Origin: Flavobacteriaceae bacterium PS02334
Lineage (GTDB): Bacteria; Bacteroidota; Bacteroidia; Flavobacteriales; Flavobacteriaceae
Assembly: GCA_029959295.1 (NCBI GenBank)
Contig: JASCOH010000004.1
Location: forward strand, 229,762-269,761
DNA length: 40,000 nucleotides
Reading direction: 5' to 3'
Below are positions 11,662 to 39,796 of the stretch, piece by piece. Position 1 is the stretch's first letter, and each line of letters begins with the position of its first letter. Both the position numbers and the translations under genes were made by a program. The notes beneath the pieces were generated by a model. The model was not told the origin of the DNA. It did not search any database and saw only the letters and a list, made by a program, of their open reading frames with translations.

Positions 11662-11667
11662 TCACTT

Positions 11668-12627
11668 ATGAAAATCACAATCCCAACATACAATCAAGCT
11701 TTTGCGGAAGACGTTTTGAAAGGCCTGACCGACAAGAAAAAGCATCTTTCGTCCCGTTATTTTTATGACGACGAAGGAAGCCATATTTTTCAGCAGATCA
11801 TGAAAATGCCTGAATATTATCCAACGAATTGCGAGTTTGAGATTCTGTCGCAACAATCGGAAAGAATTTTAGAGAAATTAAATTTCAAAGAAAACTTTAA
11901 TATTGTTGAATTTGGTTCGGGCGACGGCACAAAAACAAAGCAATTGCTGAAAACTTTTTTGGACAAAAAGGCTGATTTTACGTATGTTCCGATTGATATT
12001 TCTGAAGAAGCGATTTTGATTTTGGAGGAAAATATAAGAGCATCACTTCCCGAAATTAAGATGAATTCAAAAATTGGAGACTACTTTGATATTTTAAAGG
12101 ATATATCGAAGGAAGAAACTCCGAATCTATTCCTGTTTTTAGGAGGAAACATCGGAAATTACAAAAAGGAGGACGCAATTGATTTGCTTCAAAAATTTGC
12201 TTCGGGAATGAAAAAAGGAGACAAATTGCTGATGGGAATTGATCTGCAAAAAAGTCCGAGAACGATTCAAAAAGCATACGACGATCCACACGGAATCACG
12301 AAGGCGTTCAATATGAATTTATTGAAAAGAATTAATCGTGAATTGGAAGCGGATATTGACTTGGATCAATTTGATTTTTATTGCCATTATAATCCAGAAA
12401 ATGGTGAAGTGAATAGTTATTTGTTTAGTTTGATCAAGCAGAACTTTTACTCTAAAATTCTTGATAAATCATTCCATTTTGAAAAAGGAGAAACGATTTG
12501 GACTGAACTTTCTAAAAAATATAGTTTTACTGAAATTGAAGAATTAGCGACCAGGTTGGATTTTAAAGTGGTAGAGAATTTCTTGGATTCTAAATATTAT
12601 TTTACGGATAGTTTGTGGGAGAAATAA
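11668..12627 (+). CDS. egtD: L-histidine N-alpha-methyltransferase (EgtD-like)
   Basis: 319 aa. YFYDDEGSHIFQQIMKMPEYYPTNCEFEIL closely parallels the EgtD N-terminal signature as I recall it. It has the SAM-MTase motif VEFGSGDG and lies 6 nt after egtB. Confidence 0.85.
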   Translation: MKITIPTYNQAFAEDVLKGLTDKKKHLSSRYFYDDEGSHIFQQIMKMPEYYPTNCEFEILSQQSERILEKLNFKENFNIVEFGSGDGTKTKQLLKTFLDKKADFTYVPIDISEEAILILEENIRASLPEIKMNSKIGDYFDILKDISKEETPNLFLFLGGNIGNYKKEDAIDLLQKFASGMKKGDKLLMGIDLQKSPRTIQKAYDDPHGITKAFNMNLLKRINRELEADIDLDQFDFYCHYNPENGEVNSYLFSLIKQNFYSKILDKSFHFEKGETIWTELSKKYSFTEIEELATRLDFKVVENFLDSKYYFTDSLWEK

Positions 12628-14622: not shown

Positions 14623-14638
14623 GTAACGATTTGGTAAC
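14623..14638 (+). repeat. Left copy of the exact 16-bp direct repeat GTAACGATTTGGTAAC (candidate att core)
   Basis: Identical 16-mer at 39781-39796. There is partial flanking similarity (TCAAAG upstream, CTTGCTTTT-AAC downstream). It lies at the core/accessory transition. Confidence 0.4.
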
Positions 14639-23755: not shown

Positions 23756-23898
23756 TTAGTCTAATGTTGATGATTAGTAGTGTCGCTCATAGGGTGACGC
23801 ATAACGCACAAATATCCGAAAGTTTTAATAAACACACAAATTAAACATCTATCAATACGTCAGTAACTTATGATTTTATATATTTGCAGATATTCAAA

Positions 23899-25002
23899 AT
23901 GCGAAGCTATATGGATACTCAAAATACGAACCCCGAATTTAATCCTTCTCTTTTTAAAATTACTTTAGGAACACATCGGGGAAAGAAAGTGATTTGGTTA
24001 AAATTTAATTATGATAAACTCTTAATTGAAATATTGCGACAGCACACCAAAGCACATTGGTCGCAATTGGAAAAAACTTGGTACGTGGTTGATAATCTGC
24101 ATAACAGAAATCTTTGCGGTATTCAGCCCGATATTGTGGGAAAAGATATGCTGTGCAAAATATCTGCATCCAACTTGCCCGAGTTTCAAAAATACCAAAA
24201 CATACTTACTCTCAAAAGCTTATCGCCGAATACCATCCGCACCTATTCCATTGAGTTTGCCCAATTATTATATTTGCTTAAAGATTTTCCTGTACAGGAA
24301 CTTTCACCCGAAAGACTGCAAAGCTATTTCTTATACTGTTTCAAAGAACTGAAACTTTCCGAAAACCAAATCCACAGCAGGATAAATGCAATAAAGTTCT
24401 ACTACGAAAAAGTTTTGCATCGTAAAAAAATGTTTCTTGACATTCCACGCCCCAAAAAACCTTTGCTTTTGCCCAAATCACTGAACATTGAAGATGTAAA
24501 AAAGCTTTTTTCAGTAACCGAAAATATCAAACACCGGCTTATTCTGCAACTCTGTTACGGAATGGGCTTGCGTGTAAGCGAAATCGTGAACCTGAAAATT
24601 GAAGACATCGACAGTCGGAATATGAAAGTACTCATTCACAGGGGCAAAGGCAAAAAGGACAGATATGTCAACCTGCCACATTCAGTATTGGAAGATTTAC
24701 GGAATTATTATAAAGAATATCTTCCGAAAGACTTCCTTTTTGAGGGACAGTATGGTGGACAATATACCGTACGAAGTTCACAGCTTGTTTTCAAAAAGGC
24801 AATGAAAAAGGCAAAAATAAACAAAAACATAGGCATTCACGGATTGAGGCACAGCTATGCAACACATCTTTTGGAATTTGGCACAGACATTAGTTTTATC
24901 CAAAAGCTTTTGGGGCATAACGATATCCGTACCACACAAATTTATGCCAGGGCTTCGGACACATCGATTGCTAAAGTCGTTTCTCCTTTGGATAGGATAT
25001 GA
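23899..25002 (+). CDS. Tyrosine recombinase, IntI/XerD-like (SAM_4-type N-domain) with extra N-terminal domain
   Basis: Track ORF begins at TTG 23884; ATG at 23899 is preferred. The catalytic set is GLRVSE (R), HGLRHSYATHLL (HxxR) and LGHNDIRTTQIYARA (Y). The core-binding region is NTIRTYSIEFAQLL. The C-terminus VVSPLDRI resembles that of IntI1. Confidence 0.85.
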   Translation: MRSYMDTQNTNPEFNPSLFKITLGTHRGKKVIWLKFNYDKLLIEILRQHTKAHWSQLEKTWYVVDNLHNRNLCGIQPDIVGKDMLCKISASNLPEFQKYQNILTLKSLSPNTIRTYSIEFAQLLYLLKDFPVQELSPERLQSYFLYCFKELKLSENQIHSRINAIKFYYEKVLHRKKMFLDIPRPKKPLLLPKSLNIEDVKKLFSVTENIKHRLILQLCYGMGLRVSEIVNLKIEDIDSRNMKVLIHRGKGKKDRYVNLPHSVLEDLRNYYKEYLPKDFLFEGQYGGQYTVRSSQLVFKKAMKKAKINKNIGIHGLRHSYATHLLEFGTDISFIQKLLGHNDIRTTQIYARASDTSIAKVVSPLDRI

Positions 25003-25079: not shown

Positions 25080-26336
25080 TTATCTAGGGTAATATTTTTT
25101 CTTCTTAATCTGATTAGCAAACACTTCTTCCTCGTAATCTTCTCCCTGTGCATCAGGTAGCAAACTGAATAATCCTAAATCAGAACTATCTGAATGCTCA
25201 ATTGAAATAATTTCAAATAGGTCTTTTGTCGGCAGATTGTCTATCGTATTCGTACTAGAAGGGCTATTCTGCATTTTTAACTCGGGCTTATTTCCATTGT
25301 CCCACCATTCGTTAAAGACATTTGCTGACAGGTTTCTATCCAAAGCTGAACCGTTCCAAACACTACGGCTTTCGTGGTCAATAAAGGTCATTCCGTAAAT
25401 TCGTCCTTCATTATTACGTCTTACAACCGTATTGATGCCCTGTTCTGCAAGTTGCTTTTTAAATTCCGTTTCGTTCTTTGTGGTATGTATAGCCAATTCA
25501 ATTGTATTCTTTAGGACAGACCTTGCAGGGTTGGTTTTCATTTTCTCTTTGGATTGTTCAAAATGTTTTTGAAGCTGTACCACACCTGCATCTTTTCCGA
25601 AAAGCGATGCCTTGAACGGATTACTTACTTTGTTCCTTTTTTCGTCCAACGCTACATACACCAATCCGTTTACGGTCTGACCGTTCCGCTCTCCTTTGAC
25701 TTCTTCCGCTGTGATACTGAAAAGGAAAAGTAACGCATTGTAACTACCTATAGTAGAATAGCTATAATACTTTGGTAGATGCCGTACTACCGAAGCAATC
25801 TGACTTTTGATGTCGCCATTTTTATGATTTACAGGCTTAAAAACTTTATTAGTTTGTTTCTGTTCCTGCTCGATGGCTTTGTTCAGGTTATATTTCGTTT
25901 CCAAATCCCGACAGATTGCCATTGAACGTGGGTGGTCGTAATCATCGGGGATTTTCTTTCCGTCAATTTCCACGCAGGTCGAAACGATATGGATATGCGT
26001 GCGGTCTATATCGGTATGCTTGAAAACAATATAGGGCTGATTGCCGTACCTCATACGTTCCATATATTCCTGTGCCATATCCGCAAACTGCTGGTCGCTG
26101 ACCTTATCCGCAGGATCTGGGTTCAGCGATATATGCCTTACCGTCTTTTCTGTTTTGATATTGGCAGACAGATACGGCTCAAAACATTTGTTGAAATATT
26201 GGGAAGAATACCTGCCGTCCACCGTATCAGGTATCTTATTTAGCAACAGAACCGCTCCGTTTTCCTTTTCCACTTTCTGCTGATTGTACAGAATTGCCCC
26301 GTACATATTGCTTCCTTTTCCAATTTTTGCAATCAT
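25080..26336 (-). CDS. Relaxase/mobilization nuclease (MobB-type of Bacteroidota mobilizable elements)
   Basis: 418 aa with N-terminal MIAKIGKGSNMYGAILYN, HISLNP and the His-triad HTDIDRTHIHIV. Confidence 0.9.
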   Translation of the reverse strand: MIAKIGKGSNMYGAILYNQQKVEKENGAVLLLNKIPDTVDGRYSSQYFNKCFEPYLSANIKTEKTVRHISLNPDPADKVSDQQFADMAQEYMERMRYGNQPYIVFKHTDIDRTHIHIVSTCVEIDGKKIPDDYDHPRSMAICRDLETKYNLNKAIEQEQKQTNKVFKPVNHKNGDIKSQIASVVRHLPKYYSYSTIGSYNALLFLFSITAEEVKGERNGQTVNGLVYVALDEKRNKVSNPFKASLFGKDAGVVQLQKHFEQSKEKMKTNPARSVLKNTIELAIHTTKNETEFKKQLAEQGINTVVRRNNEGRIYGMTFIDHESRSVWNGSALDRNLSANVFNEWWDNGNKPELKMQNSPSSTNTIDNLPTKDLFEIISIEHSDSSDLGLFSLLPDAQGEDYEEEVFANQIKKKKYYPR

Positions 26337-26340
26337 TTTT

Positions 26341-26775
26341 CTACTCTTTTTTCAGGTATTTCTTTTCAAATTCTGAGCTTAGGGCAACAACTTTCAGCAA
26401 CAATTCTTTCATTTCTATTGTCTGTTTTTCCAATTTATAGAAGTATGCAGATGCTTTCTTATCCGAAAAGTTTGTGTTCAACAGCTTTACAATCTGATTG
26501 TAATTGGTTGCTATCCCTCTGAATTGGCTAAAAAATCGGGTCAGCCCTTCGTGGTATTCTACTGCATCCATATTAATTTTGACGGTCTTTAATGTCTTCT
26601 GAAAGATGCAAGCCGTAATGAAATGTGCCGTTACTTTCATTCCCGACTGGTCAAAAAGGGCAAGGAATTTGGCATTGTCCTCGTCATTCAGGTTAAAGGA
26701 ATACCGATGTACCGCAGGGTCAATCTTTGGTTTTCTCCCTGTTTTCCTAATCTGTTTTCTGTCATTCTCTTCCAT
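26341..26775 (-). CDS. MobC-like relaxosome accessory protein (MobA of Bacteroides nomenclature)
   Basis: 144 aa with the GIATNYNQIVKLLN motif (MobC NxNQ signature). It lies 4 nt upstream of the relaxase. Confidence 0.8.
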   Translation of the reverse strand: MEENDRKQIRKTGRKPKIDPAVHRYSFNLNDEDNAKFLALFDQSGMKVTAHFITACIFQKTLKTVKINMDAVEYHEGLTRFFSQFRGIATNYNQIVKLLNTNFSDKKASAYFYKLEKQTIEMKELLLKVVALSSEFEKKYLKKE

Positions 26776-26846
26776 AATAATCCATTTTAATTTTTAAACA
26801 AACGGGCGACTTCGGAGCCGTTTCCAGCCCCCTGCAAGGGCAAGTG

Positions 26847-26885
26847 CTTTTGAGGTGCCGAAATTCATTTCGAGTACCTCAAAAG
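26847..26885. other. Nested hairpin, candidate oriT or transcript-end structure upstream of mobC-like gene
   Basis: CTTTTGAGGTGC-CGAAAT-TC-ATTTCG-AGTACCTCAAAAG, with outer stem 11/12 and inner stem 6/6. A second palindrome ATCCGTTTT-G-AAAACGGAT is at 26915-26933. Confidence 0.4.
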
Positions 26886-27325
26886 ATAACTTGCTCTGAA
26901 CAGGAGTTCAGAAAATCCGTTTTGAAAACGGATTGGAGTTAGCCGGGAAATCCCATCGATTCTATTACAAATTTCGGTAAGACTGTTTGAATAACAGTCA
27001 TTTATAGTCACGTCAATGAACGACAAATAGTTCCTCTGAATGCCACCACAATGCATATTGGGACTGCTTTAATTTCCTTTGTATATGGCTAGCTGGCTGA
27101 TTGGTTATATCCTTAGTTAGTTAACTAATTAGCATAAAGTCCGACAGTAAATCATCATAATTGATTGCAAGCGAATTGCAAATTTTTCAGTTAATGAAAC
27201 AGCTAATTATGGGTATGCAGTTGCATAAGTAAATAGATAGGTAGTTACATAGTTACAATAGTATATATAACTGGCTGTTCAGCTAACCAGTCAGCTAATT
27301 TGTGATAACATTAATAACAACAGAT

Positions 27326-27817
27326 ATGATACACGAAGAAAACAAAAATCAGCAACCCGAAACAGAGGGTTTTATAGAAAATTTCCTAACTGATAAGAAG
27401 AAGGAACCTTCCACAGGACAACAGGCGTTAAAGCATCGGGAAGACTTTGCCAAACCCCAAGTGGATGAGGAAGCGATCATGCGTGTAATGGCAGGTGAAG
27501 AACCTGCGGAAACTGAAACGGAACGCAAAAGACCGTCCGTTAACAATACTAAAAAAAGTAATTCACAGCCAAAGAAGCTGACCCAAGAAGATTACTGTGG
27601 ACAGTTCTTTAAAATCCCTACAACAACGGCAAGCAGGGGCAAATCGGTCTATGTACGGCAGGAACACCACGAAACGTTCAACAGACTTACCAATATTATG
27701 GGCATTGACAAACTCACCATTTATGCATATTTGGATAATATTATCGAATACCATTTTCGGGAGTTCGGGGAATTGATTAAAGAAATCTATAACGAAAAGC
27801 ACAAACCCTTGTTTTGA
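27326..27817 (+). CDS. DUF3408-like protein of Bacteroidota mobile elements
   Basis: Track ORF begins at GTG 27302; ATG 27326 is preferred. The C-terminal KSVYVRQEHHETFNRLTNIMGIDKLTIYAYLDNIIEYHF matches my recollection of the DUF3408 pattern. It is divergent from the mob genes. Confidence 0.7.
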   Translation: MIHEENKNQQPETEGFIENFLTDKKKEPSTGQQALKHREDFAKPQVDEEAIMRVMAGEEPAETETERKRPSVNNTKKSNSQPKKLTQEDYCGQFFKIPTTTASRGKSVYVRQEHHETFNRLTNIMGIDKLTIYAYLDNIIEYHFREFGELIKEIYNEKHKPLF

Positions 27818-27959: not shown

Positions 27960-28631
27960 ATGCTACACAAAGAAACGGTCAGCAAAGAAATGTGGGAACT
28001 TCTCCAAAGGCTGATGAAAGATGAAATACTGAAAGATTTTAATCTCGTTGGCGGAACTTCGCTAAGTCTTCAGATCGGCCACCGATTAAGCATCGATATA
28101 GATCTGTTCACTACAAAAGGCTTTGACGAACAAGCCCTGTTGAAAGATTTAGCCAATAAGTATCCGATAAGGATAAGGGATATGTTTGATAATACAATCC
28201 TGCTAGATATAGATAAGGTAAAAGTAGATATTCTCGCCCACCAATATCCTTGGCAAAAGCCCATTGAAACAATAGAAGGGGTACGGTTAGCTTCTCTAGA
28301 GGACATAGGGGCAATGAAACTTCACGCGATCTTTCAAAATGGTACACGGATAAAGGATTTCATTGATATGTACTTTCTCCTAGAACATCATCCGCTTACG
28401 ATCTATCTGGAATCTTATCGGAACAAGTATGGTGGCAATCCTGCTATGGCTTCATACGCTTTATTGCATCATAAAAATATAGATAAGGAAGTAAAAGTTA
28501 ATATGTTGAAAGGAAAAGAAGTTGATATGAAAAAGGTTGCTGAGCGATTGACAAAAGCTGTCTATAATCCAACGCTCAAATTCGGAGAAAGACCAGATCC
28601 GCCTAATAAAGGCAGAGGTTTTAAGCGCTGA
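27960..28631 (+). CDS. AbiEii/AbiGii-family nucleotidyltransferase (type IV TA toxin-like)
   Basis: 223 aa with the signature LVGGTSLSLQIGHRLSIDIDLF. Confidence 0.8.
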   Translation: MLHKETVSKEMWELLQRLMKDEILKDFNLVGGTSLSLQIGHRLSIDIDLFTTKGFDEQALLKDLANKYPIRIRDMFDNTILLDIDKVKVDILAHQYPWQKPIETIEGVRLASLEDIGAMKLHAIFQNGTRIKDFIDMYFLLEHHPLTIYLESYRNKYGGNPAMASYALLHHKNIDKEVKVNMLKGKEVDMKKVAERLTKAVYNPTLKFGERPDPPNKGRGFKR

Positions 28632-28670
28632 TATAATGAGTAACAGCTAAAAAAATCGTATCTTTATTGT

Positions 28671-28988
28671 ATGGAATTAAGAGGACAAAATAAAAACATT
28701 CCAAATCTTGACCCTGTCTTTTTTTGGGATTTCGATATTGATGCAATGGACTTTATGAAAGCCCATAAGACCATTATTGCCCGAATTATCGAACGTGGCG
28801 GTCAGGAAGAGATTGATGAAATTATCCGTTTTTATGGGTATAGCAAAGTAGTCACGGCTATCCGTGACGAAATCTACTTCCTGCCCAATTATGCTATTGA
28901 CAAAGCGCTGAAATTCTTTTCCGAACTTAAAAAGGAAGAAATGTACTGTTACCTGAACCGTAAGGGCAAGCCCTATCATTGGATATAA
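28671..28988 (+). CDS. Small protein, DUF6922-like (partner of Bacteroidota AbiEii-type NTases)
   Basis: 105 aa. LDPVFFWDFDIDAMDFMKAHKTIIARIIERGGQEEIDEIIRFYG resembles the domain I recall next to such NTases. The assignment is from memory only. Confidence 0.5.
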   Translation: MELRGQNKNIPNLDPVFFWDFDIDAMDFMKAHKTIIARIIERGGQEEIDEIIRFYGYSKVVTAIRDEIYFLPNYAIDKALKFFSELKKEEMYCYLNRKGKPYHWI

Positions 28989-29675: not shown

Positions 29676-29972
29676 ATGGACGTAGCAGTTTTAGATATTC
29701 AGATTTTAAAAGCACTGTATAGGGAAGTAAAGGAAGTTTCCAATTTGATTGCGGAAATTACTGCACCCTACAAAGCACTTCAACAGGCAACGAAATGGCT
29801 TGACGGGCAGGAAGCCTGCCAATTGCTCAATATCAGCAAGCGAACGTTGCAAACGTACAGAACAAAAGGTGTTCTCGGGGCAACCCAAATCAATCGTAAG
29901 AATTATTTCAAACTGACTGATGTGGAATTGCTGATGCAGACAGAGCAACCATTAAAAAAGCGAAAGAAATGA
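29676..29972 (+). CDS. HTH_17 (MerR/excisionase-like) DNA-binding protein
   Basis: 98 aa with WLDGQEACQLLNISKRTLQTYRTKGVL. Confidence 0.8.
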   Translation: MDVAVLDIQILKALYREVKEVSNLIAEITAPYKALQQATKWLDGQEACQLLNISKRTLQTYRTKGVLGATQINRKNYFKLTDVELLMQTEQPLKKRKK

Positions 29973-30250
29973 AACAGATTGGGGATTCAAACGAGGATAT
30001 GCTTGCCTTGCTCGAAGCTGTGGTACGCATCAAAAATGAACTGTTGTACATCAGGGAATATTTCCACCCGCTCTTAAAAGGAGAAATCTACCTGTCAGGT
30101 GAACAGGTTTGCAAGATGCTTCACATCAGCAAACGGACATTGCAACAGTACAGGGATGAAGGACTGATACCGTTTATCAAACTCGAACGGAAAATACTTT
30201 TCCGAGAAAGTGATATTATCAAAGTGTTAGAAGATAACTATCAACTTTAG
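29969..30250 (+). CDS. HTH_17 (MerR/excisionase-like) DNA-binding protein, paralog of the preceding gene
   Basis: 93 aa with YLSGEQVCKMLHISKRTLQQYRDEGLIPF. It has a 4-nt ATGA overlap with the upstream gene. Confidence 0.8.
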   Translation: MKQIGDSNEDMLALLEAVVRIKNELLYIREYFHPLLKGEIYLSGEQVCKMLHISKRTLQQYRDEGLIPFIKLERKILFRESDIIKVLEDNYQL

Positions 30251-30380: not shown

Positions 30381-32627
30381 TTATTTTTGTCCAATTTCAC
30401 TCAATGTTTGTTCGAGTAATTTTATTCTGTCTTCCAGGTCATTTCCGTCATTGGTTTGTGGTATAAAATAAAGACCATCTTTGTTTATTGTACCATTTAG
30501 CTGAAGGTCGTCTAATAAAGTATTTGCTGACCTATCGCTCATTCCATTTTCAAACAAAAAACCGTTTGGTACTGAAAAAATCAAAATCTTTTTTCGGTTA
30601 TGTGAGAAGCCAAGTTTAGCTCCATAGTTGTCAAGACTAACATTTTTAATTCTTTTTGAGTTTTTGACTTCTCTTAAAAACGGATCCCAATGCCACCCAT
30701 TAAATTGTCTTTCTTTCATTTTCCAAATGCAATAATCAGTACCTTTCAAAAAAGAATAATATCCTTGGTTGCAGTTTTCTCTAAACGAAGAATATTTCAT
30801 AAAGTAATATTTCCAATCCTTTGGACTTTTTGAATAATCAAAAAGGACTTCATCAGTTTTTTGCTGAATTGAAGCTGATTGATTGGCAATAAAGAAATCT
30901 AAACACTGTAGAATAACTGTTCGGGTTTTTTCCTGAAAATCTGATTTGTTATAGCCTGGGGTTGTTAGAAAATTTCTGACAACACGCCCTTTATTTGACA
31001 TTAAATTAGTTAATGTCCCATCGCTTTGTGAATAATCTCCGAAGCTCAACAAAAGATTACTCTTCGTATTGAAATCTGAAATAATATCATTCTCATCAAA
31101 TATTTCTAAAAATTTATTTGCTCGATTTTTAAAGTCACCAGCCAAAGGAAACAACGAGATACTTCCTCTAAGAATATCACTGTCTTCAAGTTTCTGAAGA
31201 TTTTTTTTGCTTGTTGTAACGTGATAGATGTACTCTTTTTTTGATTTTTCTTCTTGGATCTGATCCGTTTTAAACGTTTTAAAAATCTCTAAATCATTAT
31301 TTTTAATGAAATGTTCCGCTTCTTCGAAGCTGTTCCCTAAATTAGATTCACGCAATTCGTTTTCAGAATTTACGACCAAATTTCTTAAAGTTCGTATTTG
31401 GTCATTGAATAAATCATTTGGATTCTTAAGATGTGTTAAGCAGGCTAAAAGTAAAATTTGCTCAGGAAACGACAAAACCCTATTATCTGCGAAACGTAAA
31501 CATCGTTTTAAAAGGTTAGTCTCTTCTCCGGGGAAAAATAACCTTGTCTTAGTGGTTGTGAAATCATCTTTCCTAAAATAGAACAATTCATTCCAAAATG
31601 CTGGATTTTCTCGTTCTTGCCTACATATTGCATCTAGTGCATCAAACAAAAAGTTTTGATTTTCAGTGTTTTTGTAGATTGTTTTAAGTAATTCGGCTGA
31701 TTCAATAGTATTTGAATAACGGAAATCGCTTTTATCTTTCAAATCTTTTTTGAATGATATAACTGAAGTAATGAAATTGAAAAAGTTAAGGAAAGAATTA
31801 TCAACGATTAGAGCAATGTCGTCATCTTCTGTTAAAGAACCTGATTCAATAATGATATGCCAAATAGCATCTGTCCAAGTTCCATCTATTGATAATTCAA
31901 ATCGTTTCCTTTGTTCGGGTTCTGAAATAATTTCAGAAAATCCAGCCTTAAAATATTCAAACTCTGTTAAAGGCTTTCCGCGAGAGTTCATTTTGATATA
32001 CAAATCGTCTGTTAAGCCAACTTTCTCCATATCTAATTTATAAAAATAGAATGGCGAATTTTCAATAACGTTCCAAACAGATTTTACATTTAAGCCTTTG
32101 TATCTTAGTTCAATATCCTTAAGAACAACAAGCATTGCCTGAATACTGGGGTCGAAATCCCACGTTTCAAAATACCAAGGTTGGTTTGTAATTTCTTCGT
32201 TAATATGTTCGTGTGAAAATTCGGGTTTAAATTGAATTAAATTTCTGTAGAACTCAGTGGTACTGTGTCTTGTTTCATACATAAAGTTGGCAAGAAAAGT
32301 GACTTCACCATCTGAAATACCTTCCTTGACAGAAACAAACCAATACAACAGCCAAAGTGTTGTTAACCTTTGTTGTCCATCAATCGGAACAAAAGTAATT
32401 TGATTATTGGACTCTTCTTCATTGAATCCGTAAATAAAATCAAGTTCAATTTCAATCTCTGGATATAATTCCTTTTTGGAAATGAAGTCAAATAAAACAT
32501 CTAAAAAATCTTTTCGGATTTTATTAGTTTTATTATCTGTTCTTCCTTGTGCATAATCCCTTTGAATGATGGGTATTTCAACCTTGTTATTCAATATTTC
32601 GATATAATTATTTCTCATTTTCTTCAA
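30381..32627 (-). CDS. DUF262 (ParB/Srx-like NTPase) domain protein with long unassigned C-terminal region
   Basis: 748 aa with IPIIQRDYAQGR and PIDGQQRLTTLWLL (DUF262 signatures). I see no His-Me/HNH motif in the C-terminal ~450 aa. Confidence 0.8.
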   Translation of the reverse strand: MKKMRNNYIEILNNKVEIPIIQRDYAQGRTDNKTNKIRKDFLDVLFDFISKKELYPEIEIELDFIYGFNEEESNNQITFVPIDGQQRLTTLWLLYWFVSVKEGISDGEVTFLANFMYETRHSTTEFYRNLIQFKPEFSHEHINEEITNQPWYFETWDFDPSIQAMLVVLKDIELRYKGLNVKSVWNVIENSPFYFYKLDMEKVGLTDDLYIKMNSRGKPLTEFEYFKAGFSEIISEPEQRKRFELSIDGTWTDAIWHIIIESGSLTEDDDIALIVDNSFLNFFNFITSVISFKKDLKDKSDFRYSNTIESAELLKTIYKNTENQNFLFDALDAICRQERENPAFWNELFYFRKDDFTTTKTRLFFPGEETNLLKRCLRFADNRVLSFPEQILLLACLTHLKNPNDLFNDQIRTLRNLVVNSENELRESNLGNSFEEAEHFIKNNDLEIFKTFKTDQIQEEKSKKEYIYHVTTSKKNLQKLEDSDILRGSISLFPLAGDFKNRANKFLEIFDENDIISDFNTKSNLLLSFGDYSQSDGTLTNLMSNKGRVVRNFLTTPGYNKSDFQEKTRTVILQCLDFFIANQSASIQQKTDEVLFDYSKSPKDWKYYFMKYSSFRENCNQGYYSFLKGTDYCIWKMKERQFNGWHWDPFLREVKNSKRIKNVSLDNYGAKLGFSHNRKKILIFSVPNGFLFENGMSDRSANTLLDDLQLNGTINKDGLYFIPQTNDGNDLEDRIKLLEQTLSEIGQK

Positions 32628-34446
32628 CTATTTCAGGATTATACAATTCTACGCATTTTCGGATTTCATTTGAATACGTATCCCTTTCTTCTTTTGTCCA
32701 TACAGAATAATGTTGTCCATTATCGGATGCGTAATATTTCAGAAAAATCCTCTTGGTAGCTAATGGAATAAATGCTCCCGTTCTGTCTAGTTCAATAATT
32801 TTTCTGCGTTTTACTTCAAAAACTGAATTGCTTAAGGAAATATTTTCTGTAAGTCCCAGCAATGCCATATTTTGAATTTTATGTAAATATTCGTTTTCAT
32901 TGGTGTTTTCAGACGGAATGAGCTTTAAAATTCGTTCGCTTAATGTTTTGAAGTCCTCGTATCTGTAAGTTTTCTGGTCAATTGAATTGACTTCTGCGAT
33001 AATTCTTTTTGCTTTCTCTTTATCAATAGCAACATTCAATAATATATTAGAGTGAGAGCAAAGCCAACTGAACCATTCTTCTCTTTTATTCTCGTTGATT
33101 CCTTCAATGTTTTGTGAGTGAATATGTTCTAAACTTTTTGTAATGTTTTTATACATTTCAAAAGGGAAAAACTCATTACTATTTTTATTTCCTCTTATTA
33201 ATTCAATATTGGTTAAAAGCAGTACTCTGATAATTTTATCGTGGTCACTTCTTTTGTCGTATCTCAAATCTTCCCAGTCATCATCAATGTTGTTAGCAAT
33301 TAACTCGTCGATTTCTTTTTCAAAATTTTGTTTGGTATAGTTTTTCTTGATTTTTATTAAATTGGCAATAGGCGTACCTGTAGTAATAAGATAGCCAATT
33401 TTGTGATATAGATTTTTGTTTGAATACCAGTAGGCTAATGAGCGATATATTTCTTCTACCTCAATCCATTTTCTCCAAAGTGAATCGGCGGTTTCTTTTT
33501 CATCGAAAAAGTGAATAAAACTATATAAGGGGTCTTTTTCGCTTGATATTTTGTTAGAAATGATGTCAAATAAATATTCAATCTTATTACTGTATCTGTC
33601 TAATTTTTCGTTTGAAACAAACGCCCAAAATTTTGGATTGTTGAGTTGATTTTCAATTTCATCCCAAATTTGTACTAATTGTGTTCTGCGTTTAATTTTG
33701 TCATCTTCCGACATTCCTTTAAAACTGTCAGCATTTACAAATTTTGCTTTAATCAATTCAGCACTTGTAAGTGGTATTTTACCTCGATTTAAACGAGTAA
33801 ACAACTCTTCGCTTTTTTGTGTTGTATCTTTTATTTCATACCAAATTACTTGTACGCTCCATTCTGGCAGTTGTTTTTCTACTTTGTCGTTTATCAGGAT
33901 GCTTGGTAAGATGATTTTCAGTATTTCATCTTTTACCTGTCTCGGAATTCCTTTTTTTCCGTCTTCAAACCATTCTTTTATACAATTATAAGCCTCACTC
34001 ATATAGTATAAGTCTGGTTTTGTGTTATTAGATGTATTTGTTTCCAAAAATGCTTTAGATTCAAGTCGAGTCTTATAATAAATGGAATATAAATCGTTTT
34101 GATAACCTTCGGATTTCAAATTGTTTTGAAGATACTCCAATGTTAAGTAAGTAATAATACGATGAAGGGTTGTTAAGCGTTGTTGCCCGTCAATGAGTTC
34201 ATAACCTTGTATTGTTTTTCCTTCAATGTCTTGCCACTCAGCTTTTCTTACAACCACGGGTTGTAAACAATAAAATGTATTTCTGTTATTAGGTTCTTGT
34301 CTGTATTCCCAAATGTCATTGAGTAATTGTAAAACGTTAGTTTTTGTCCATCTGTAACCTCTTTGATATTCGGGAATATAAAAATTATCCCCCAAGAGTT
34401 CGGTAATACTTAATGTCTTAATTTGGTTTTCTTGCATAATTATCAA
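32608..34446 (-). CDS. GmrSD-family type IV restriction-like protein (DUF262 + DUF1524)
   Basis: 612 aa with IPEYQRGYRWTK and LIDGQQRLTTLHRI (DUF262). The C-terminal LEHIHSQN ... NMALLGLTENISLSNSVFEVKRRK is a DUF1524 His-Me finger-like motif. Its 3' end overlaps the next gene by 20 nt. Confidence 0.8.
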   Translation of the reverse strand: MIIMQENQIKTLSITELLGDNFYIPEYQRGYRWTKTNVLQLLNDIWEYRQEPNNRNTFYCLQPVVVRKAEWQDIEGKTIQGYELIDGQQRLTTLHRIITYLTLEYLQNNLKSEGYQNDLYSIYYKTRLESKAFLETNTSNNTKPDLYYMSEAYNCIKEWFEDGKKGIPRQVKDEILKIILPSILINDKVEKQLPEWSVQVIWYEIKDTTQKSEELFTRLNRGKIPLTSAELIKAKFVNADSFKGMSEDDKIKRRTQLVQIWDEIENQLNNPKFWAFVSNEKLDRYSNKIEYLFDIISNKISSEKDPLYSFIHFFDEKETADSLWRKWIEVEEIYRSLAYWYSNKNLYHKIGYLITTGTPIANLIKIKKNYTKQNFEKEIDELIANNIDDDWEDLRYDKRSDHDKIIRVLLLTNIELIRGNKNSNEFFPFEMYKNITKSLEHIHSQNIEGINENKREEWFSWLCSHSNILLNVAIDKEKAKRIIAEVNSIDQKTYRYEDFKTLSERILKLIPSENTNENEYLHKIQNMALLGLTENISLSNSVFEVKRRKIIELDRTGAFIPLATKRIFLKYYASDNGQHYSVWTKEERDTYSNEIRKCVELYNPEIVEENEK

Positions 34447-34604: not shown

Positions 34605-34638
34605 GAAAAAAGCCAATGTACAAGACATTGACTTTTTC
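34605..34638 (-). terminator. Rho-independent terminator after the three-gene operon
   Basis: The minus strand reads AGTCAATGT-CTTGT-ACATTGGCT followed by TTTTTTC, about 65 nt after the stop at 34703. Confidence 0.7.
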
Positions 34639-34702: not shown

Positions 34703-36316
34703 TTAATCTTCTTCAAAGTTTAGTATTTCACCTTCAATAACCAAATTATGCAATTCAGACATCAGTTTCTCAACAATTATATTCATCTGCCCAACTTCTT
34801 CCTTATCCAGTTTTGATAACTTATGATGAAGGGTCATATGTCTATCCAAATAAGGAAAGAAATTCGTCCAGAACTGCTCAATCAAATATTCATATTTTCG
34901 AATATCAGAATCTGCATACAGGCATAACTGCCACAATGATTGACTGGATAGGTAATTAGGCAGGTAATACGTTTTCACAAAAATGTATGTCCTGCAAAAA
35001 GACAGGAAAAACAATGAAAATAGATATTCTAAACCTTGGTAGTTTCCTTTAGGATTATTGGCTATCTCAAAGAACTGGAAAGCACTGTTCTTGGTTGATA
35101 TATAATGAAAGTACAAATCAGGGTGGTAAGGATCGTGAGGAACTTCCCAATGAAATTCTGGGTGGTATGGGCTGGATGAATATATGAGGTATTTCTCTTG
35201 AATAATGCTAGTAAAGAAACTCTGAGTATGATAGAGATTTTTTTGAATCCAGCAACGGCTATGGCTTATCAAAACAAAAGCATATTTCCCGTTCATTCTG
35301 CTTTTGAGTGATTGGCTTATCAAACTTAATTTTTCGTTGCCTGCCCCTTCAGATATCAGCATTAGATAATACGTTGTTTTCTCTCCATATGTAATTTGAT
35401 GATAGAGATAAATCTGTTCGGCTTCTACAAAATTTAGTATGGTTTCAATAGCAGTTTCAAGAATTGCATCTTTCGGTTCTTTACCAATCATATTAGATAC
35501 TTTTTGCACTTTAAAAGATTGTTTTCTTATCCTTTTCTTTAATTCATCAAGACGATTTTCAATAAGATGGTAAAGACTTTGTTCTGCAATGCTAACCGCT
35601 TCGTACATCTCACTTTTATATATTACATCATCATCGGCAGTTGCTTCTTTTGCTTTTTCAAAGAGTTCAGTAAGATAATATTTGCTATGGCTATTTTTTA
35701 CAAAGTATTTTTGGATTTCAGGAATATATTCGATTAGATTGTTGATCCTTTCGTCCAAACCCAGCGAATTATGATTATTTCCTGAATAAAGTTCTTCCAA
35801 ATATTCAAGATCGTACTCTATCAATCTTGCATAGGATGTAAAAACACTGTTTGAAGAACCTTCTGAAATAAGATTTTGGACTTGAGACCTATAAAGATCG
35901 TGATCGTGGTAAAATCCTTCTTGAAAGACATTGAATTTTTTCTTGTATTTTTTCCACTCCCTTGCAATGATTAGCGAATCTCCGAACTCTTCATTTTGGT
36001 AGATAAGTGTCGAAGGCTGACAGCAGAATTCAATAAAGGGATGCCCTAGAGAAAATTTATGATAAAATTTTACGGAGTAGATGAATTGGACATCTATCTT
36101 ATATTGATTTCTAACTTTCTGTACCCATTTGCTTTGCTGTAGCTCCTGTGCATCGCTATTTTTTTCAGTATGAATAATCAGATGCGAAAATAGGGATGAG
36201 GTATTTTTTACCAAAAACAACTGAATGATATTATGCTGATTGACCAATTGTCTCAGGATATTTTCCAAAAACTCGTTTTCAAGTTTGGGAAATGTGATTT
36301 TTTTTGAAGTTTTCAT
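34703..36316 (-). CDS. Unknown protein X3: apparent tandem duplication of a degenerate NTase-like + helical (HEPN-like) module
   Basis: 537 aa. Residues ~20-115 and ~285-400 share the pattern I..L....Q..L...(hydrophobic strand)...Y.hxh..S......LIY. Each is followed by a helical region. No GS/DxD or Rx4-6H catalytic motifs were found. The call is by eye only. Confidence 0.6.
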   Translation of the reverse strand: MKTSKKITFPKLENEFLENILRQLVNQHNIIQLFLVKNTSSLFSHLIIHTEKNSDAQELQQSKWVQKVRNQYKIDVQFIYSVKFYHKFSLGHPFIEFCCQPSTLIYQNEEFGDSLIIAREWKKYKKKFNVFQEGFYHDHDLYRSQVQNLISEGSSNSVFTSYARLIEYDLEYLEELYSGNNHNSLGLDERINNLIEYIPEIQKYFVKNSHSKYYLTELFEKAKEATADDDVIYKSEMYEAVSIAEQSLYHLIENRLDELKKRIRKQSFKVQKVSNMIGKEPKDAILETAIETILNFVEAEQIYLYHQITYGEKTTYYLMLISEGAGNEKLSLISQSLKSRMNGKYAFVLISHSRCWIQKNLYHTQSFFTSIIQEKYLIYSSSPYHPEFHWEVPHDPYHPDLYFHYISTKNSAFQFFEIANNPKGNYQGLEYLFSLFFLSFCRTYIFVKTYYLPNYLSSQSLWQLCLYADSDIRKYEYLIEQFWTNFFPYLDRHMTLHHKLSKLDKEEVGQMNIIVEKLMSELHNLVIEGEILNFEED

Positions 36317-36945
36317 AATACAGTTTTATTAGGATTATTATCTGGTACATTGAAATAAGTGTAGACCGATTCTAAAAACAGACGGACTAATGCAAACCAA
36401 GCCATAAGCTCAGTGTGTTCCTGCAATTCAGGATCATTTTCCAAACCTCTTGCGCTTTCTAAGCTTAAATCTAAATCCTGAATTTTATGCTGGAACTTTT
36501 CGTAATAGTCTAACCCTACAACCGATACAATTATAATCAGCAGGTCGTGTACAAACTTGTCGGAACTTATTGAACGTAAAATATACCTGAGACTGTCATA
36601 ACTATAATCGCTGGGGTTTGGATTTTCCTTAAGCTCATAACAAAAATGTATCAGTAACTGGAGACAGGAGAAAAGCCCTGCTGTTTTCACATCGATTATT
36701 TCATTATCAGGAATTTCAAGTTCGCCAGAAAGTAGCTGTCCCAGTCCGTATTCCTGCAAAAGTTCGGGATACCTGTCCAGCAACAATTCGAGTTTTGGAT
36801 TTTCTAATTTTTTCAAAAGCTCCGAAATCCCCTTTTCGATATTGAACTTTTGTGAATCCTGCAGTAACATATTCAATGCTGTCTTCGCCTGCTGTGCCGA
36901 TTTTATAAGCCTTTTTCCTTTCTTAAAGTTTTCATTATTTTCCAT
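36313..36945 (-). CDS. Unknown all-helical protein X2
   Basis: 210 aa with no recognised motif. It has a 4-nt ATGA overlap with X3, which suggests translational coupling. Confidence 0.6.
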   Translation of the reverse strand: MENNENFKKGKRLIKSAQQAKTALNMLLQDSQKFNIEKGISELLKKLENPKLELLLDRYPELLQEYGLGQLLSGELEIPDNEIIDVKTAGLFSCLQLLIHFCYELKENPNPSDYSYDSLRYILRSISSDKFVHDLLIIIVSVVGLDYYEKFQHKIQDLDLSLESARGLENDPELQEHTELMAWFALVRLFLESVYTYFNVPDNNPNKTVL

Positions 36946-37014
36946 ATCATAAAAATTTAGCTTTGTTAAAGTTGGGAATGTGCAAAAGGATATTCTAATC
37001 CATTACTGGATGTA

Positions 37015-37566
37015 TTATTCTAATGGAAGGATATTCTTTTTTATCTTTTCAAGACCACTTTCACGCATAATCTGACTTGCATCAAGCATTTTGACCAAAT
37101 GGATATAGGGCGTGATCAGGTCATAATCAAATTCTTCGACATTAGGAGATAACGATATGTGTATGATTTCACAAAGAAAAAAGTCAAATTCATCTAGTGA
37201 TTTCTCTATAAATGCAATTTGAAATACTGTAAACGGATTGGCAAATTCTTCCTTTGTCAATGAAGCTCGGTGGAGAATCGATTTACAGTCAGATGCCTGC
37301 TTGACTTTCCATTTTTTTCCTTTGTTTTGCAGGTAAAAACAAGCCTTAAGAAAAGATCGAAGCGTAGTGTAAAAAACAAATACCTGTCCTGGATATTCTT
37401 TTTTGTAAACTTCCTGCTTACTGATATAAAGAACTGCTTCTGCTAATCTCTGCTTATAATGATCAAGATCCGCATAATCAAAAAAAGCATCAATTACCTC
37501 AAAAGGGTTTTCTATCTCATAGGCATACCAAAAATTCGTTTCAAAAGATATTTTATTCTTTTTCAT
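37015..37566 (-). CDS. Unknown protein X1
   Basis: Track ORF 37015..37908 (297 aa) overlaps the opposite-strand XRE gene. Its first 114 aa look like non-coding read-through, so I start at Met115 (MKKNKISFETNFWYAYEIENPF, 37566). No motif was recognised. Confidence 0.55.
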   Translation of the reverse strand: MKKNKISFETNFWYAYEIENPFEVIDAFFDYADLDHYKQRLAEAVLYISKQEVYKKEYPGQVFVFYTTLRSFLKACFYLQNKGKKWKVKQASDCKSILHRASLTKEEFANPFTVFQIAFIEKSLDEFDFFLCEIIHISLSPNVEEFDYDLITPYIHLVKMLDASQIMRESGLEKIKKNILPLE

Positions 37567-37734
37567 AATTGGAAATTTTAATATTGAGTAGCGAAGTTCT
37601 ATTCTTTGTAAAGGATAATCTATTCGGGATGCGGATATAATATCTGACAAAATGGATATTTTACAGTATATTTTTTTACCTTTGAGATTCAGATTTTTTA
37701 ATCCAAATGGCTTTATCTTTGAGCCTTTAGAAAA

Positions 37735-38154
37735 ATGACACTCGCTATGGAACAGAAAATACATCAGGGAAGAAATGTAAAACGCTTCAGGGAAATGCTC
37801 GGAATTAAACAAGAAGCATTGGCTTATGATTTGGGTGAAGACTGGAATCAGAAGAAAATTTCTATGCTGGAGCAGAAAGATGTAATTGAAGATAATCTTC
37901 TTAAACAAATCTCAGGAGCTTTAAGGATTCCTGTGGAAGCGTTTCAAAACTTTGATGAAGAACAAGCGGTAAATATCATATCCAATACTTTTAACGACCA
38001 ATCCAATGGATACAATTATTACCCAACTTTTAATGTCAATCCAGTAGAAAAATGGATTGAAGCATTAGAAGAAATTAAGCGCTTGAATTTGGAACTTTTG
38101 AAGGCCAAAGATGAACAGATTAAGGTTTTGGAAAAATTGGTTTCAAACAAGTAA
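37735..38154 (+). CDS. XRE-family helix-turn-helix regulator with C-terminal coiled-coil
   Basis: 139 aa (an alternative start is at 37747). The HTH is NVKRFREMLGIKQEALAYDLGEDWNQKKISMLEQ. It is divergent from X1-X3. Confidence 0.8.
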   Translation: MTLAMEQKIHQGRNVKRFREMLGIKQEALAYDLGEDWNQKKISMLEQKDVIEDNLLKQISGALRIPVEAFQNFDEEQAVNIISNTFNDQSNGYNYYPTFNVNPVEKWIEALEEIKRLNLELLKAKDEQIKVLEKLVSNK

Positions 38155-38366
38155 AAATATCAGTAATCTATTTTTATCAACTTAACTAAATCATAATGGG
38201 TTTACTAGATTTTATGTTAAAGGGACAAACGAAAAACAGTGGATTAAGGCTGTGGAGAGGTAAATCTGGAGATTATTGGAAAAGTAGTGGCTCTGGAAGA
38301 AAAGGTTTTACAGAATTTTTCTTTCCTAAAAAGAAAAAGTAACTTTAAGCATTATTCTTAATTAAT

Positions 38367-38396
38367 AAAAGGCTCAACTGATAAGTTGAGCCTTTT
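38367..38396. terminator. Bidirectional terminator between XRE region and integrase 3' end
   Basis: AAAAGGCTCAAC-TGATAA-GTTGAGCCTTTT, a 12-bp stem with A/T runs on both sides. Confidence 0.75.
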
Positions 38397-38417
38397 ATTA
38401 TGTGTATGTTTTAATTC

Positions 38418-39668
38418 CTATAATTGTGAAACAAAGGAACTTTCCATTCCTTTGAAATTTTCGGCTACCTTCTCCATATCTTTCCCTACTTTCTCATTCA
38501 ATATCTTCGCATAGATTTGTGTAGTTGCGATATTCTTGTGTCCCATCATCTTGCTCAGACTTTCAAGTGGAACGCCTTCGCTTAGAAAAAGCGTAGCAAA
38601 GGTGTGACGTGCCAAATGGAACGTTACCTTTTTGTTTTCAAGGCAGGTAATAAGTTGTGATATCTTATTAAGGCTTTCATTGCAGACAGTATTGGAAGGT
38701 ACTGGAAATACAAGTCCATTTTGTGAAAGACCTTCATACTTGCTGATAATCATTTTAGGGATATCCAATAACATCACATTCGATGAGGTTGCTGTTTTTC
38801 TCCTGCGAATTATAATCCATTCCCTGCCATCAAAAAACTCTTGAATATTGCTTTTCTTCAGTCCCTTCATATCAGAATAAGAAAGTCCCGTAAAACAGCT
38901 GAAAATAAAAAGGTCTTTTACCAATTCATATTTCTTTTTAATACACTCAAAAGTAACAAGCTGTTCCAATTCGCTTCGTAGTAGATAGCCACGATCTCTG
39001 TCCTTCTTGGTGTTCTTGTATTCACTGAACGGGTTGCTGGAAAGATGTTTTCTGCTTATAGCCAATCGGCAAACGGTAGTAAGCCCGATCATATAGACCC
39101 ATATTGTATTGTGTTCTAGACTTTGGTCATTACGAAGATAGTAATCGAATTCCTGAATAAATTCACAATCAATAGTATTGAATGCAATATCCGAACTTTT
39201 ATATTTCGAACGGACAAAACTTTTAAGGTGGATCAAAAGGCTTCTGTATTTTCCAAGTGTTCCGTATGCCCGAAGTCCGCTATCGACCTTTTTCTCAAAA
39301 TCCAGTATAAATCTATCGTAGAATTTGAAAAATGTCAGTTCTCCGCTTTCCATACCGAGGAAAACATCTTTCAGTTTATCGCTATTTACACTTCCATCAC
39401 TCTCCATAATTTTTGAGTGGCACTTTTCAATACCCATACGAATGCTGTCAAGTTTGGTGTTGAGGTTCTGTGCTTCCTTGCTTTTGCCCGAAACCCTGCC
39501 ATATTTCAAATCCCAAGTAGAAGCAGAAATATCCAGCTTGGCACTGAATGTGGATTGCTTGCCATTAACGGTTATCCTGCACATAACAGGCACCATTCCG
39601 TTTTTCTTTGGTGCATTCTTTTTTAGGTAGAATAATACCTTAAATGTTGATCTTTTTGTCGTTTCCAT
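38418..39668 (-). CDS. int: Tyrosine integrase, Bacteroidota CTn/IME type (Arm-binding + SAM_5 + catalytic domain)
   Basis: 416 aa. The N-terminus STFKVLFYLKKNAPKKNGMVPVMCRITVNGKQSTFS is an Arm-type domain. It also has HLARHTFATLFL and MMGHKNIATTQIYAKI. Confidence 0.9.
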   Translation of the reverse strand: METTKRSTFKVLFYLKKNAPKKNGMVPVMCRITVNGKQSTFSAKLDISASTWDLKYGRVSGKSKEAQNLNTKLDSIRMGIEKCHSKIMESDGSVNSDKLKDVFLGMESGELTFFKFYDRFILDFEKKVDSGLRAYGTLGKYRSLLIHLKSFVRSKYKSSDIAFNTIDCEFIQEFDYYLRNDQSLEHNTIWVYMIGLTTVCRLAISRKHLSSNPFSEYKNTKKDRDRGYLLRSELEQLVTFECIKKKYELVKDLFIFSCFTGLSYSDMKGLKKSNIQEFFDGREWIIIRRRKTATSSNVMLLDIPKMIISKYEGLSQNGLVFPVPSNTVCNESLNKISQLITCLENKKVTFHLARHTFATLFLSEGVPLESLSKMMGHKNIATTQIYAKILNEKVGKDMEKVAENFKGMESSFVSQL

Positions 39669-39780: not shown

Positions 39781-39796
39781 GTAACGATTTGGTAAC
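39781..39796 (+). repeat. Right copy of the exact 16-bp direct repeat GTAACGATTTGGTAAC (candidate att core)
   Basis: Identical to 14623-14638. It lies 113 nt outside the integrase start codon. Confidence 0.4.

Follow-up and report, generated by a model that had tools for sequence, protein, structure and literature searches.

A modular XRE and HEPN-like gene set in the cargo slot of mobilizable elements of Bacteroidota: a candidate conflict module

What is the role of three genes without a recognisable product that lie next to an integrase and are transcribed away from a putative repressor? Such a set is found in a 40,000-nt stretch of the genome of Flavobacteriaceae bacterium PS02334 (contig JASCOH010000004.1, positions 229,762 to 269,761; hereafter the window, in whose own numbering all positions are given), where genes X1, X2 and X3 are divergent from a gene encoding an XRE-family regulator. 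Our comparative analysis reduces this set to an invariant pair, XRE and X3, assigns X3 to the HEPN superfamily and suggests, as a tentative reading to which we give somewhat less than an even chance, that the module is an XRE-repressed, HEPN-based conflict system of the defence or abortive-infection type.

X3 (34703-36316, minus strand, 537 aa, as read in the open reading frame (ORF) listing and the raw sequence) had been considered as unrecognisable as its neighbours, a view that has to be abandoned. The X3 family is small: clustering at 50% of 1.84 billion proteins leaves 134 representatives, which all measure about 500-590 aa and show no fusions. The AF2 model of X3 is weak (pLDDT 59, pTM 0.33), and its secondary structure presents two successive units, each with a small alpha-beta-beta-alpha-beta domain and then a helical domain. 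When the N-terminal and C-terminal halves were compared with hhalign, using a 50-member alignment of diverse members, they matched each other (probability 91.7%, E 7.9e-7, 241 columns), and X3 therefore arose through internal duplication. Unit 1 covers approximately residues 1-270 and unit 2 residues 271-537, both composed of a ferredoxin-like alpha/beta domain and a HEPN-like helical domain. The window protein by itself gave no Pfam match at threshold; four distant full-length members of the family (P0447, P0459, P0461 and P0473), whose link to X3 has E values between 3e-8 and 7e-4, match Pfam HEPN (PF05168) with 30-37 bits against a cut-off of 22 (E 4e-9 to 7e-7), always in the first helical domain. 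That domain of P0461 also matches PDB 4nqf (E 5e-4), and the X3 family profile aligns weakly to 4nqf with its second helical domain (E 0.078). For the alpha/beta domain, Foldseek returned ferredoxin-like folds (C-terminal domains of CDF proteins, BolA) at E of about 0.02, a value that is not significant alone. Through the profile and structure matches of its distant members X3 is placed in the HEPN superfamily, and its architecture is predicted to be a single-chain tandem duplication of ferredoxin-like plus HEPN-like domains, in a branch lacking a conserved Rx4-6H motif.

At the position of this motif, unit 1 of X3 has neither R nor H. Unit 2 of the window protein shows R492-x4-H497, and [KR]492-x4-H497 is kept in 51 of 68 close relatives only; because of this retention, X3 may have residual RNase activity. 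An alternative composition, with a nucleotidyltransferase and a HEPN domain in each unit, was suggested by the strand-loop-strand pattern and was dropped, since no nucleotidyltransferase profile matched, GS and DxD signatures were missing, and both Foldseek and the 2013 HEPN survey indicate a ferredoxin-like domain. Specifically, neither NTP_transf_2 nor any other nucleotidyltransferase family of Pfam or NCBIfam was matched by X1-X3 or by 50 family members, and the beta-hairpins IQLFLV...SHLIIHT and IYLYHQ...YYLMLIS contain no GS or DxD.

The HEPN-T family (Cpin_6617) was described in Bacteroidetes and Nitrospirae as a HEPN domain in which Rx4-6H is not conserved and which is joined to a pair of ferredoxin domains (Anantharaman et al. 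2013, PMC3710099, Table 1). As far as the table describes it, X3 is alike, being a Bacteroidetes protein with HEPN domains devoid of Rx4-6H and with two ferredoxin-type alpha/beta domains. The HEPN-T entry, however, is a table line without function, gene context or regulator, and mentions neither a second HEPN-like domain nor an origin from tandem units (PMC3710099). With PF05168 and 4nqf the likeness lies in the distant members that pass the Pfam cut-off and in the alignment of both helical domains to 4nqf, whereas the H and 'ARY' positions are replaced in X3 (YLPNYLS; KEATADDD).

Upstream of X3 on the same strand lie X2 (36313-36945, 210 aa, acidic with a pI of 4.9) and X1 (37015-37566, 183 aa), separated by 69 bp. 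The X2 stop and the X3 start overlap in tcat at 36313-36316 of the plus strand, that is, ATGA on the minus strand, and a terminator-like hairpin with a 14-pair stem and a T-run (34606-34638, minus strand) closes the X1-X2-X3 transcription unit. Clustered at 90% identity, homologous sequences form 334 clusters for X3, 100 for X1 and 173 for X2. These homologues are of full length and carry only the annotation 'hypothetical', and almost all of them belong to Flavobacterium and Chryseobacterium. Because full-length homologues occur in hundreds of Bacteroidota sequences, we regard the three ORFs as genuine genes; the X1 start at ATG 37566 agrees with the conserved M1-K2 of its 100 homologues, which are 50-96% identical. 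The preliminary description of the locus had been accurate in these matters: the genes, the ATGA overlap, the 168-bp intergenic region with its palindrome and repeated words, and the terminator were all found where it had placed them.

Is this operon the unit that is conserved? A scan of a genome collection with the X3 alignment gave 79 loci, which belong to Flavobacterium, Chryseobacterium, Epilithonimonas, Myroides, Paludibacter, Prolixibacteraceae and Weeksellaceae; exact look-up added two, and the make-up of these 81 loci was established by tblastn of all window proteins and by ORF clustering. The XRE gene is divergently upstream of X3 in 76 of them. Four exceptions have no XRE gene in the sequence covered (L061, L064, L070 and L071, the last two on contigs that end inside X3), and in L049 it lies 9 kb upstream, past extra copies of X1. 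According to ORF calls, the space between XRE and X3 holds X1-X2 in about 23 loci, X1 only in about 30, X2 only in 2-3, a duplicated X1 in three and nothing in about 19, which makes the three-gene operon one form among several of a modular cassette. The invariant core is, by this comparison of loci, the divergent pair XRE plus X3, with X1, X2 and a 118-aa gene (cluster c4) as optional parts. Thus the operon proposed in the preliminary description does not stand as a unit, as about one quarter of the loci lack X1 and about two thirds lack X2, X1 is present in duplicate in some and c4 often comes after X3; from the supposed XRE-X1-X2-X3 block, the linkage of XRE with X3 stands and that of X1 and X2 is variable.

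On a metagenome contig (L083, 3769-9026), XRE is 100% and X1 and X2 are both 98% identical to the window, and homology to X3 ends after codon 58, with four unrelated genes (127, 463, 555 and 325 aa) in place of the rest. The junction is a recombination breakpoint within X3.

The regulator and its DNA show the strongest conservation of the module. The XRE gene (37735-38154, plus strand) encodes 139 aa from its first ATG; in most relatives the start corresponds to the second ATG, at 37747 (MEQKIHQG...), which is probably the true start and gives a protein of 135 aa and a spacer of 180 bp. It consists of an N-terminal helix-turn-helix (HTH; residues ~5-72) and a C-terminal coiled coil (~105-139), with profile matches to Pfam HTH_19 (weak), to PADLOC HTH_VI (E 6e-7, a generic model) and to PHROG transcriptional regulators. 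The HTH is 74-96% identical across all type-1 loci, including those of Prolixibacteraceae. The protein is mosaic: its last ~35 residues, the coiled coil, occur as two alleles, the window type in L007, L010, L016, L045 and L057 and the other in all remaining loci as well as in a second XRE clade, and these alleles are distributed independently of X1 and X3 similarity.

The divergent control region (37567-37734) measures 168 bp from the annotated XRE start and contains the palindrome GATATAATATC (GATAT-A-ATATC, 37634-37644, read directly in the sequence), GGATAT boxes at 37633-37638 and 37654-37659, a GGATAA at 37613-37618 and a degenerate copy at 37666-37671. In about 40 loci the length of the spacer hardly varies (~170-180 nt), irrespective of whether X1 or X3 comes next, and in about 40 related intergenic regions the palindrome and the GGATAT/ATATCC boxes are kept column by column. 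Read in the direction of the X genes, the conserved stretches comprise AAATATCC-TGTAA-AATATCC, then the palindrome GATAT-T-ATATC(C), then ATTATCC ~21 nt on and, on the XRE side, two CAAAG-containing blocks; even in the distant Prolixibacteraceae loci, the half of the spacer next to XRE can be recognised. Read on the XRE strand, the CAAAG blocks are TAnnTTTG strings (37677-37684 and 37714-37721 in the window), and TAnnTTTG is the Bacteroidetes -7 promoter consensus. Since both CTTTGAG words (37680-37686 and 37717-37723) sit within such strings, they are more likely putative promoter boxes than operators. No Rfam family matched in the conserved spacer, where a non-coding RNA was looked for.

A second, unrelated type of spacer (TTCGGTACGGTACAATCTATTG...) accompanies the second XRE clade (33-38% identity) in seven of seven aligned cases, and regulator and DNA therefore co-vary. 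In the second-clade loci (L002, L005, L013, L014, L023, L030 and L048) the spacer upstream of X3 or X1 carries TTCGGTACGGTAC and repeated TACAA words. This clade drives the same X3 family, a situation that resembles heteroimmune repressor/operator pairs. Overall, our alignments show much stronger conservation in the XRE HTH and the intergenic DNA than in X1-X3. Together with the coiled-coil alleles, this is in keeping with a repressor that binds DNA and dimerises through a zipper, and speaks against an antitoxin that has a tail evolving jointly with its toxin. The DNA 3' of XRE is conserved in related loci too, with a terminator-like hairpin of 17 pairs (38363-38400, plus strand); a small ORF considered there was dropped, being the terminator alone that is conserved.

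With respect to the optional genes, X1 occurs in 54 of the 81 loci, at times duplicated, and X2 in about 27, always immediately upstream of X3. The AF2 model of X1 (pLDDT 79, pTM 0.79) contains helices only, in an all-alpha bundle, and its structure search gave no PDB or BFVD (viral) match, with best E values of 1.2 and 1.5. Sequence-profile searches of X1 and X2 against PDB found nothing, and X1, X2 and X3 had no match in Pfam, NCBIfam, PADLOC or PHROGs. Here the earlier statement that X1 and X2 contain no nameable motif is borne out, since profile and PDB searches, and for X1 also the structure search, produced no relative. X1, X2 and X3 would be soluble, mildly acidic proteins, without any transmembrane-like segment. 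The 118-aa c4 gene, for which Pfam gives no match, lies directly after X3 in 26 loci (L009, L040 and 24 others), and an 81-86-aa gene (cluster c9) lies after XRE in 11; both are absent from the window and are possible extra components of the module. A paralogous relationship of X1, X2, c4 (118 aa) and c9 (85 aa), among themselves or with the domains of X3, was also considered and rejected (hhalign probability <1%).

Where does the module reside? To judge from gene content, the module of the window lies in an integrative mobilizable element (IME), and the earlier placement of the module between a type IV restriction-like pair and the integrase is correct. A tyrosine integrase gene (38418-39668) lies on one side; on the other are two adjacent GmrSD_N genes (30381-34446) that overlap by 20 nt and only the upstream of which (32608-34446) also matches GmrSD_C, followed by two HTH_17 excisionase-like genes (29676-30250), a DUF6922 gene with an AbiEii nucleotidyltransferase toxin gene (27960-28988), and DUF3408, MobC_2 and relaxase genes (25080-27817). 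We compared the slot between integrase and HTH_17 genes in metagenome contigs with close relatives of the integrase, mapping all window proteins onto 80 loci, and defined a same-backbone set of 25 contigs by an integrase of at least 72% and an HTH_17 gene of at least 80% identity. The slot is empty (116-119 bp) in four of these elements (L095, L098, L100 and L104), holds other genes over 0.7-8.1 kb in 19, and carries the XRE-X module in two, complete in L108 and with X3 cut in L083. As 23 of 25 same-backbone elements do without it, the module is dispensable cargo and not part of the IME backbone. The cargo-slot position given in the preliminary description is thereby corroborated, and the possibility it raised that the genes would be conserved backbone components is contradicted.

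The module also changes backbones. A Flavobacterium johnsoniae locus (L001, strain CP103794) shares that of the window (integrase 95%, HTH_17 pair 92-95%, DUF6922 96%, DUF3408 92% and MobC 81% identity), and its module is more diverged than most of this backbone (XRE 67%, X1-X3 81-84%), with a 768-aa protein and an nSTAND3 NTPase after X3, unlike the window. Besides this tyrosine integrase/MobA-type backbone, the module is found in elements with the order relaxase/MobC, XRE, X1-X3-c4, small gene and large serine recombinase, inserted beside era/der; in a third type with integrase, HTH_17, DUF5906/VapE, Toprim primase and DUF5712 genes and with MmeI or type I restriction-modification (R-M) genes after X3; and in a Chryseobacterium type. 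From this distribution we conclude that it is portable between at least four IME backbones. A single transcription unit of the X operon and the serine recombinase was considered and discarded, as a hairpin with a T-run and a gap of 250 bp lie between them in L040. Several copies can occur per genome, in different elements: Flavobacterium sp. LAR06 (L037 and L021, one contig), F. hydrocarbonoxydans (L040 and L045, one contig) and F. limicola (L014 and L020) have two or more copies, and F. hercynium has at least five X1 homologues. Relatives of X3 and XRE were not found in GenBank phages, PLSDB plasmids or IMG/VR, and an origin of these genes from phages, plasmids or viral contigs was rejected on this ground.

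Many neighbours of the module are genes of biological conflict, among them GmrSD (window and L074), nSTAND3, OLD/UvrD, RES, MmeI-type and type I R-M genes; in L074, from Prolixibacteraceae, a GmrSD pair 29-33% identical to that of the window lies upstream of the module. Altogether, 64 large neighbours match 205 PADLOC families (E <=1e-10). In sister elements without the module, the same slot holds a mixture of genes, which includes GIY-YIG, AAA_13, nSTAND3, AbiV and GmrSD. The association with defence genes is suggestive but falls short of being decisive.

How could such a module act? In the conflict reading that we favour, XRE would dimerise by its C-terminal coiled coil, bind the palindrome and the boxes, repress the X promoter and regulate itself. 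The two HEPN-like domains of X3 would pack like a HEPN homodimer and form one composite cleft, and the two ferredoxin-like (ACT/RRM-type) domains would be sensors for RNA or a small ligand. Upon an invasion-type signal X3 would bind RNA, perhaps with weak cleavage, with growth arrest or blockage of the invader as a result, and X1, X2 and the 118-aa protein would serve as interchangeable modulators or specificity adaptors. We count in its favour the cargo status and portability of the module, its constant XRE and X3 pair, the HEPN relationship and internal duplication of X3 with the HEPN-T precedent, the neighbouring conflict genes, the AbiV gene in the slot of a sister element, and the conservation of regulator and operator DNA. 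X3 also diverges fast, with 34% identity in Prolixibacteraceae against 74-78% for the XRE HTH. Several observations weigh against it. The geometry of the X3 pseudo-dimer can only be inferred, because the model is poor. Family searches of the window proteins revealed no recognisable effector (nuclease, protease, pore or NADase) in the module, X1, X2 and X3 matched nothing in PADLOC-DB v2 at E up to 1, and the Rx4-6H endoribonuclease motif is not conserved over the 50-member family alignment. Moreover, the slot also carries a TetR/efflux set, FMN reductases, an antiporter and a ketoacyl synthase, and since such cargo is unrelated to defence, guilt by association is weak. Finally, genomes with several copies are unusual for a defence system and fit an element-centred function. 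In this sense, the defence-type setting claimed in the preliminary description holds in that neighbours are often restriction or defence genes, and fails in that the slot holds efflux, reductase and antiporter genes as well, while its claim that no known system is involved is upheld, as X1-X3 match no known defence, toxin-antitoxin (TA) or phage family. The most novel version, in which a Bacteroidota-specific IME immune or conflict system of a new type has as its sole essential protein a single-chain, non-catalytic HEPN-like pseudo-dimer with two ferredoxin-like sensors that would sequester or sense RNA or a nucleotide without cleavage, silenced by XRE and its operator and diversified by X1, X2 and c4, seems unlikely.

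The same conservation pattern may also be read as that of an accessory regulatory switch, which we hold possible though doubtful. XRE would then be the working part, and a non-catalytic X3 with ACT-like ferredoxin domains would sense a ligand or RNA and act either on XRE or on how nearby cargo is transcribed or translated, similarly to inactive-HEPN regulators such as MtlR, and so tune the variable region of the IME or give co-resident IMEs an element-level immunity. Inactive HEPN domains have been proposed as regulators (PMC3710099), and the lack of a conserved catalytic motif in X3, an XRE HTH and operator DNA conserved above every X protein, two types of regulator/operator specificity and the co-residence of several module-bearing IMEs in one genome would all suit this role. 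So would the position of the module, which always abuts variable cargo, 54 of 72 first downstream genes being co-oriented with it. Yet read-through control of this cargo is not obvious, because terminators follow X3 in the window and the 118-aa gene in L040; nSTAND3 and GmrSD cargo occupies the slot without the module too, and a fast-diverging protein of 537 aa is much machinery for a co-regulator. An involvement in excision, integration or transfer as backbone regulators is the least credible of the proposals and, to us, most improbable. The module adjoins the integrase in the window family and lies directly upstream of the large serine recombinase in 18 of 72 loci, but elements with the same integrase (72-80%), HTH_17 pair, DUF3408, MobC and relaxase mostly lack it, four of them having an empty slot, and in the serine-recombinase family the T-run hairpin divides the X operon from the recombinase unit.

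An addiction module that stabilises the IME, with X3 as HEPN-like toxin and XRE as antitoxin, would be in line with the frequency of both Xre-type antitoxins and HEPN toxins in TA systems (PMC2701414, PMC3710099) and with the presence of the module on mobile elements, beside another pair of this kind, AbiEii/DUF6922. Against it, both the window and 76 loci have XRE divergent, on the other strand and at a distance of 168-180 bp, so that no bicistron exists, and X3 has no conserved RNase motif. The C-terminal alleles of XRE do not co-vary with X1-X3: identities are 92% for XRE, 73% for X3 and 57% for X1 in L007, and 67% for XRE and 81% for X3 in L001. L083, in addition, retains XRE-X1-X2 despite the loss of X3. 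We consider this explanation very unlikely, and assign a similarly low probability to a role as anti-defence or establishment cargo, where X1-X3 would neutralise host restriction, a host defence or a competing element on entry and XRE would later shut the genes off. Soluble, mildly acidic proteins of non-enzymatic appearance, a variable gene set and a repressor that would follow the logic of zygotic induction are compatible with it. X1-X3, however, resemble no anti-restriction protein or viral structure that is known; X3 and XRE are missing from phages, PLSDB plasmids and IMG/VR, where genes of anti-defence usually occur as well, and the module lies ~8-10 kb from the MobC/relaxase (oriT) region of the window.

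How does the locus compare with studied systems? AbiV and the HepT/MntA type VII TA system are likewise HEPN-superfamily conflict genes on mobile elements, and AbiV is found in the same IME slot of a sister element. HEPN proteins act as dimers, which the tandem X3 would mimic in one chain. AbiV and HepT, in contrast, are homodimers of ~130-200 aa with active motifs or dedicated partners (the MntA nucleotidyltransferase, phage SaV), whereas X3 has no nucleotidyltransferase match in Pfam, no GS or DxD and no conserved Rx4-6H. Regarding regulation, BrxR of bacteriophage exclusion (BREX), CapH/CapP of cyclic-oligonucleotide-based signalling (CBASS) and ImmR/ImmA of integrative and conjugative elements (ICE) belong to repressor-controlled defence operons or immunity modules. 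The likeness consists of an HTH regulator divergent from genes that are presumably repressed, across a spacer with a palindromic putative operator; the differences are that XRE has a C-terminal coiled coil in place of a WYL domain, and that no peptidase family, such as that of ImmA/CapP-type Zn-metalloproteases (COG2856), was matched by X1-X3, c4 or c9. Among the conflict or regulatory modules that mobile elements carry, the locus is best filed as a variant within those of the HEPN superfamily.

Current defence catalogues, built mostly from Proteobacteria and Firmicutes, give little coverage of Flavobacteriia and other Bacteroidota. The module described here is common, with 334 X3 clusters, modular, and placed at the very site in which IMEs carry their exchangeable conflict genes. 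Should it prove to be a system of defence or competition, the HEPN superfamily would gain an architecture without a studied member, a tandem, motif-less pseudo-dimer with ferredoxin-like sensors, and the hyper-conserved repressor/operator pair of the module could become a genetic tool for Flavobacterium; if it is a regulatory switch, it would be a rare case of an inactive-HEPN sensor that controls mobile-element cargo. Either way, a clean integrase-proximal cargo slot is defined in a family of Flavobacterium IMEs and may be mined for more candidates, and F. johnsoniae carries a native copy of the module.

Regarding the limits of the island, a 16-bp exact direct repeat, GTAACGATTTGGTAAC, occurs at 14623-14638 and, just outside the integrase, at 39781-39796, and brackets ~25 kb. 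In L001, L053, L068 and L082-L084 the same 16-mer is located ~120 bp from the integrase, on its outer side, and in L086 immediately beyond the relaxase; because it recurs at the ends of related elements, it is probably the attachment site of a composite island of ~25 kb. Its apparently composite nature follows from 10 kb of additional DNA between the relaxase and the distal repeat. This interval includes, just inside the repeat, a group II intron (Rfam group-II-D1D4-3 at 15028-15247, 95 bits; RT/maturase ORF with RVT_1 and GIIM at 15461-16756), then an IS-type DDE transposase gene (18859-20397) and, adjoining the relaxase, a second tyrosine recombinase gene (23884-25002), with a 45%-identical recombinase similarly placed in L033. 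This arrangement suggests a tandem accretion of two elements. Within the IME, the AbiEii and DUF6922 genes probably form a type IV TA pair, which is present in the sister elements L089, L105, L032 and L045 and missing from others. Outside the island, at 10498-12627, a DinB_2/FGE-sulfatase gene and a histidine-specific methyltransferase gene (Methyltransf_33) resemble the EgtB/EgtD ergothioneine pair.

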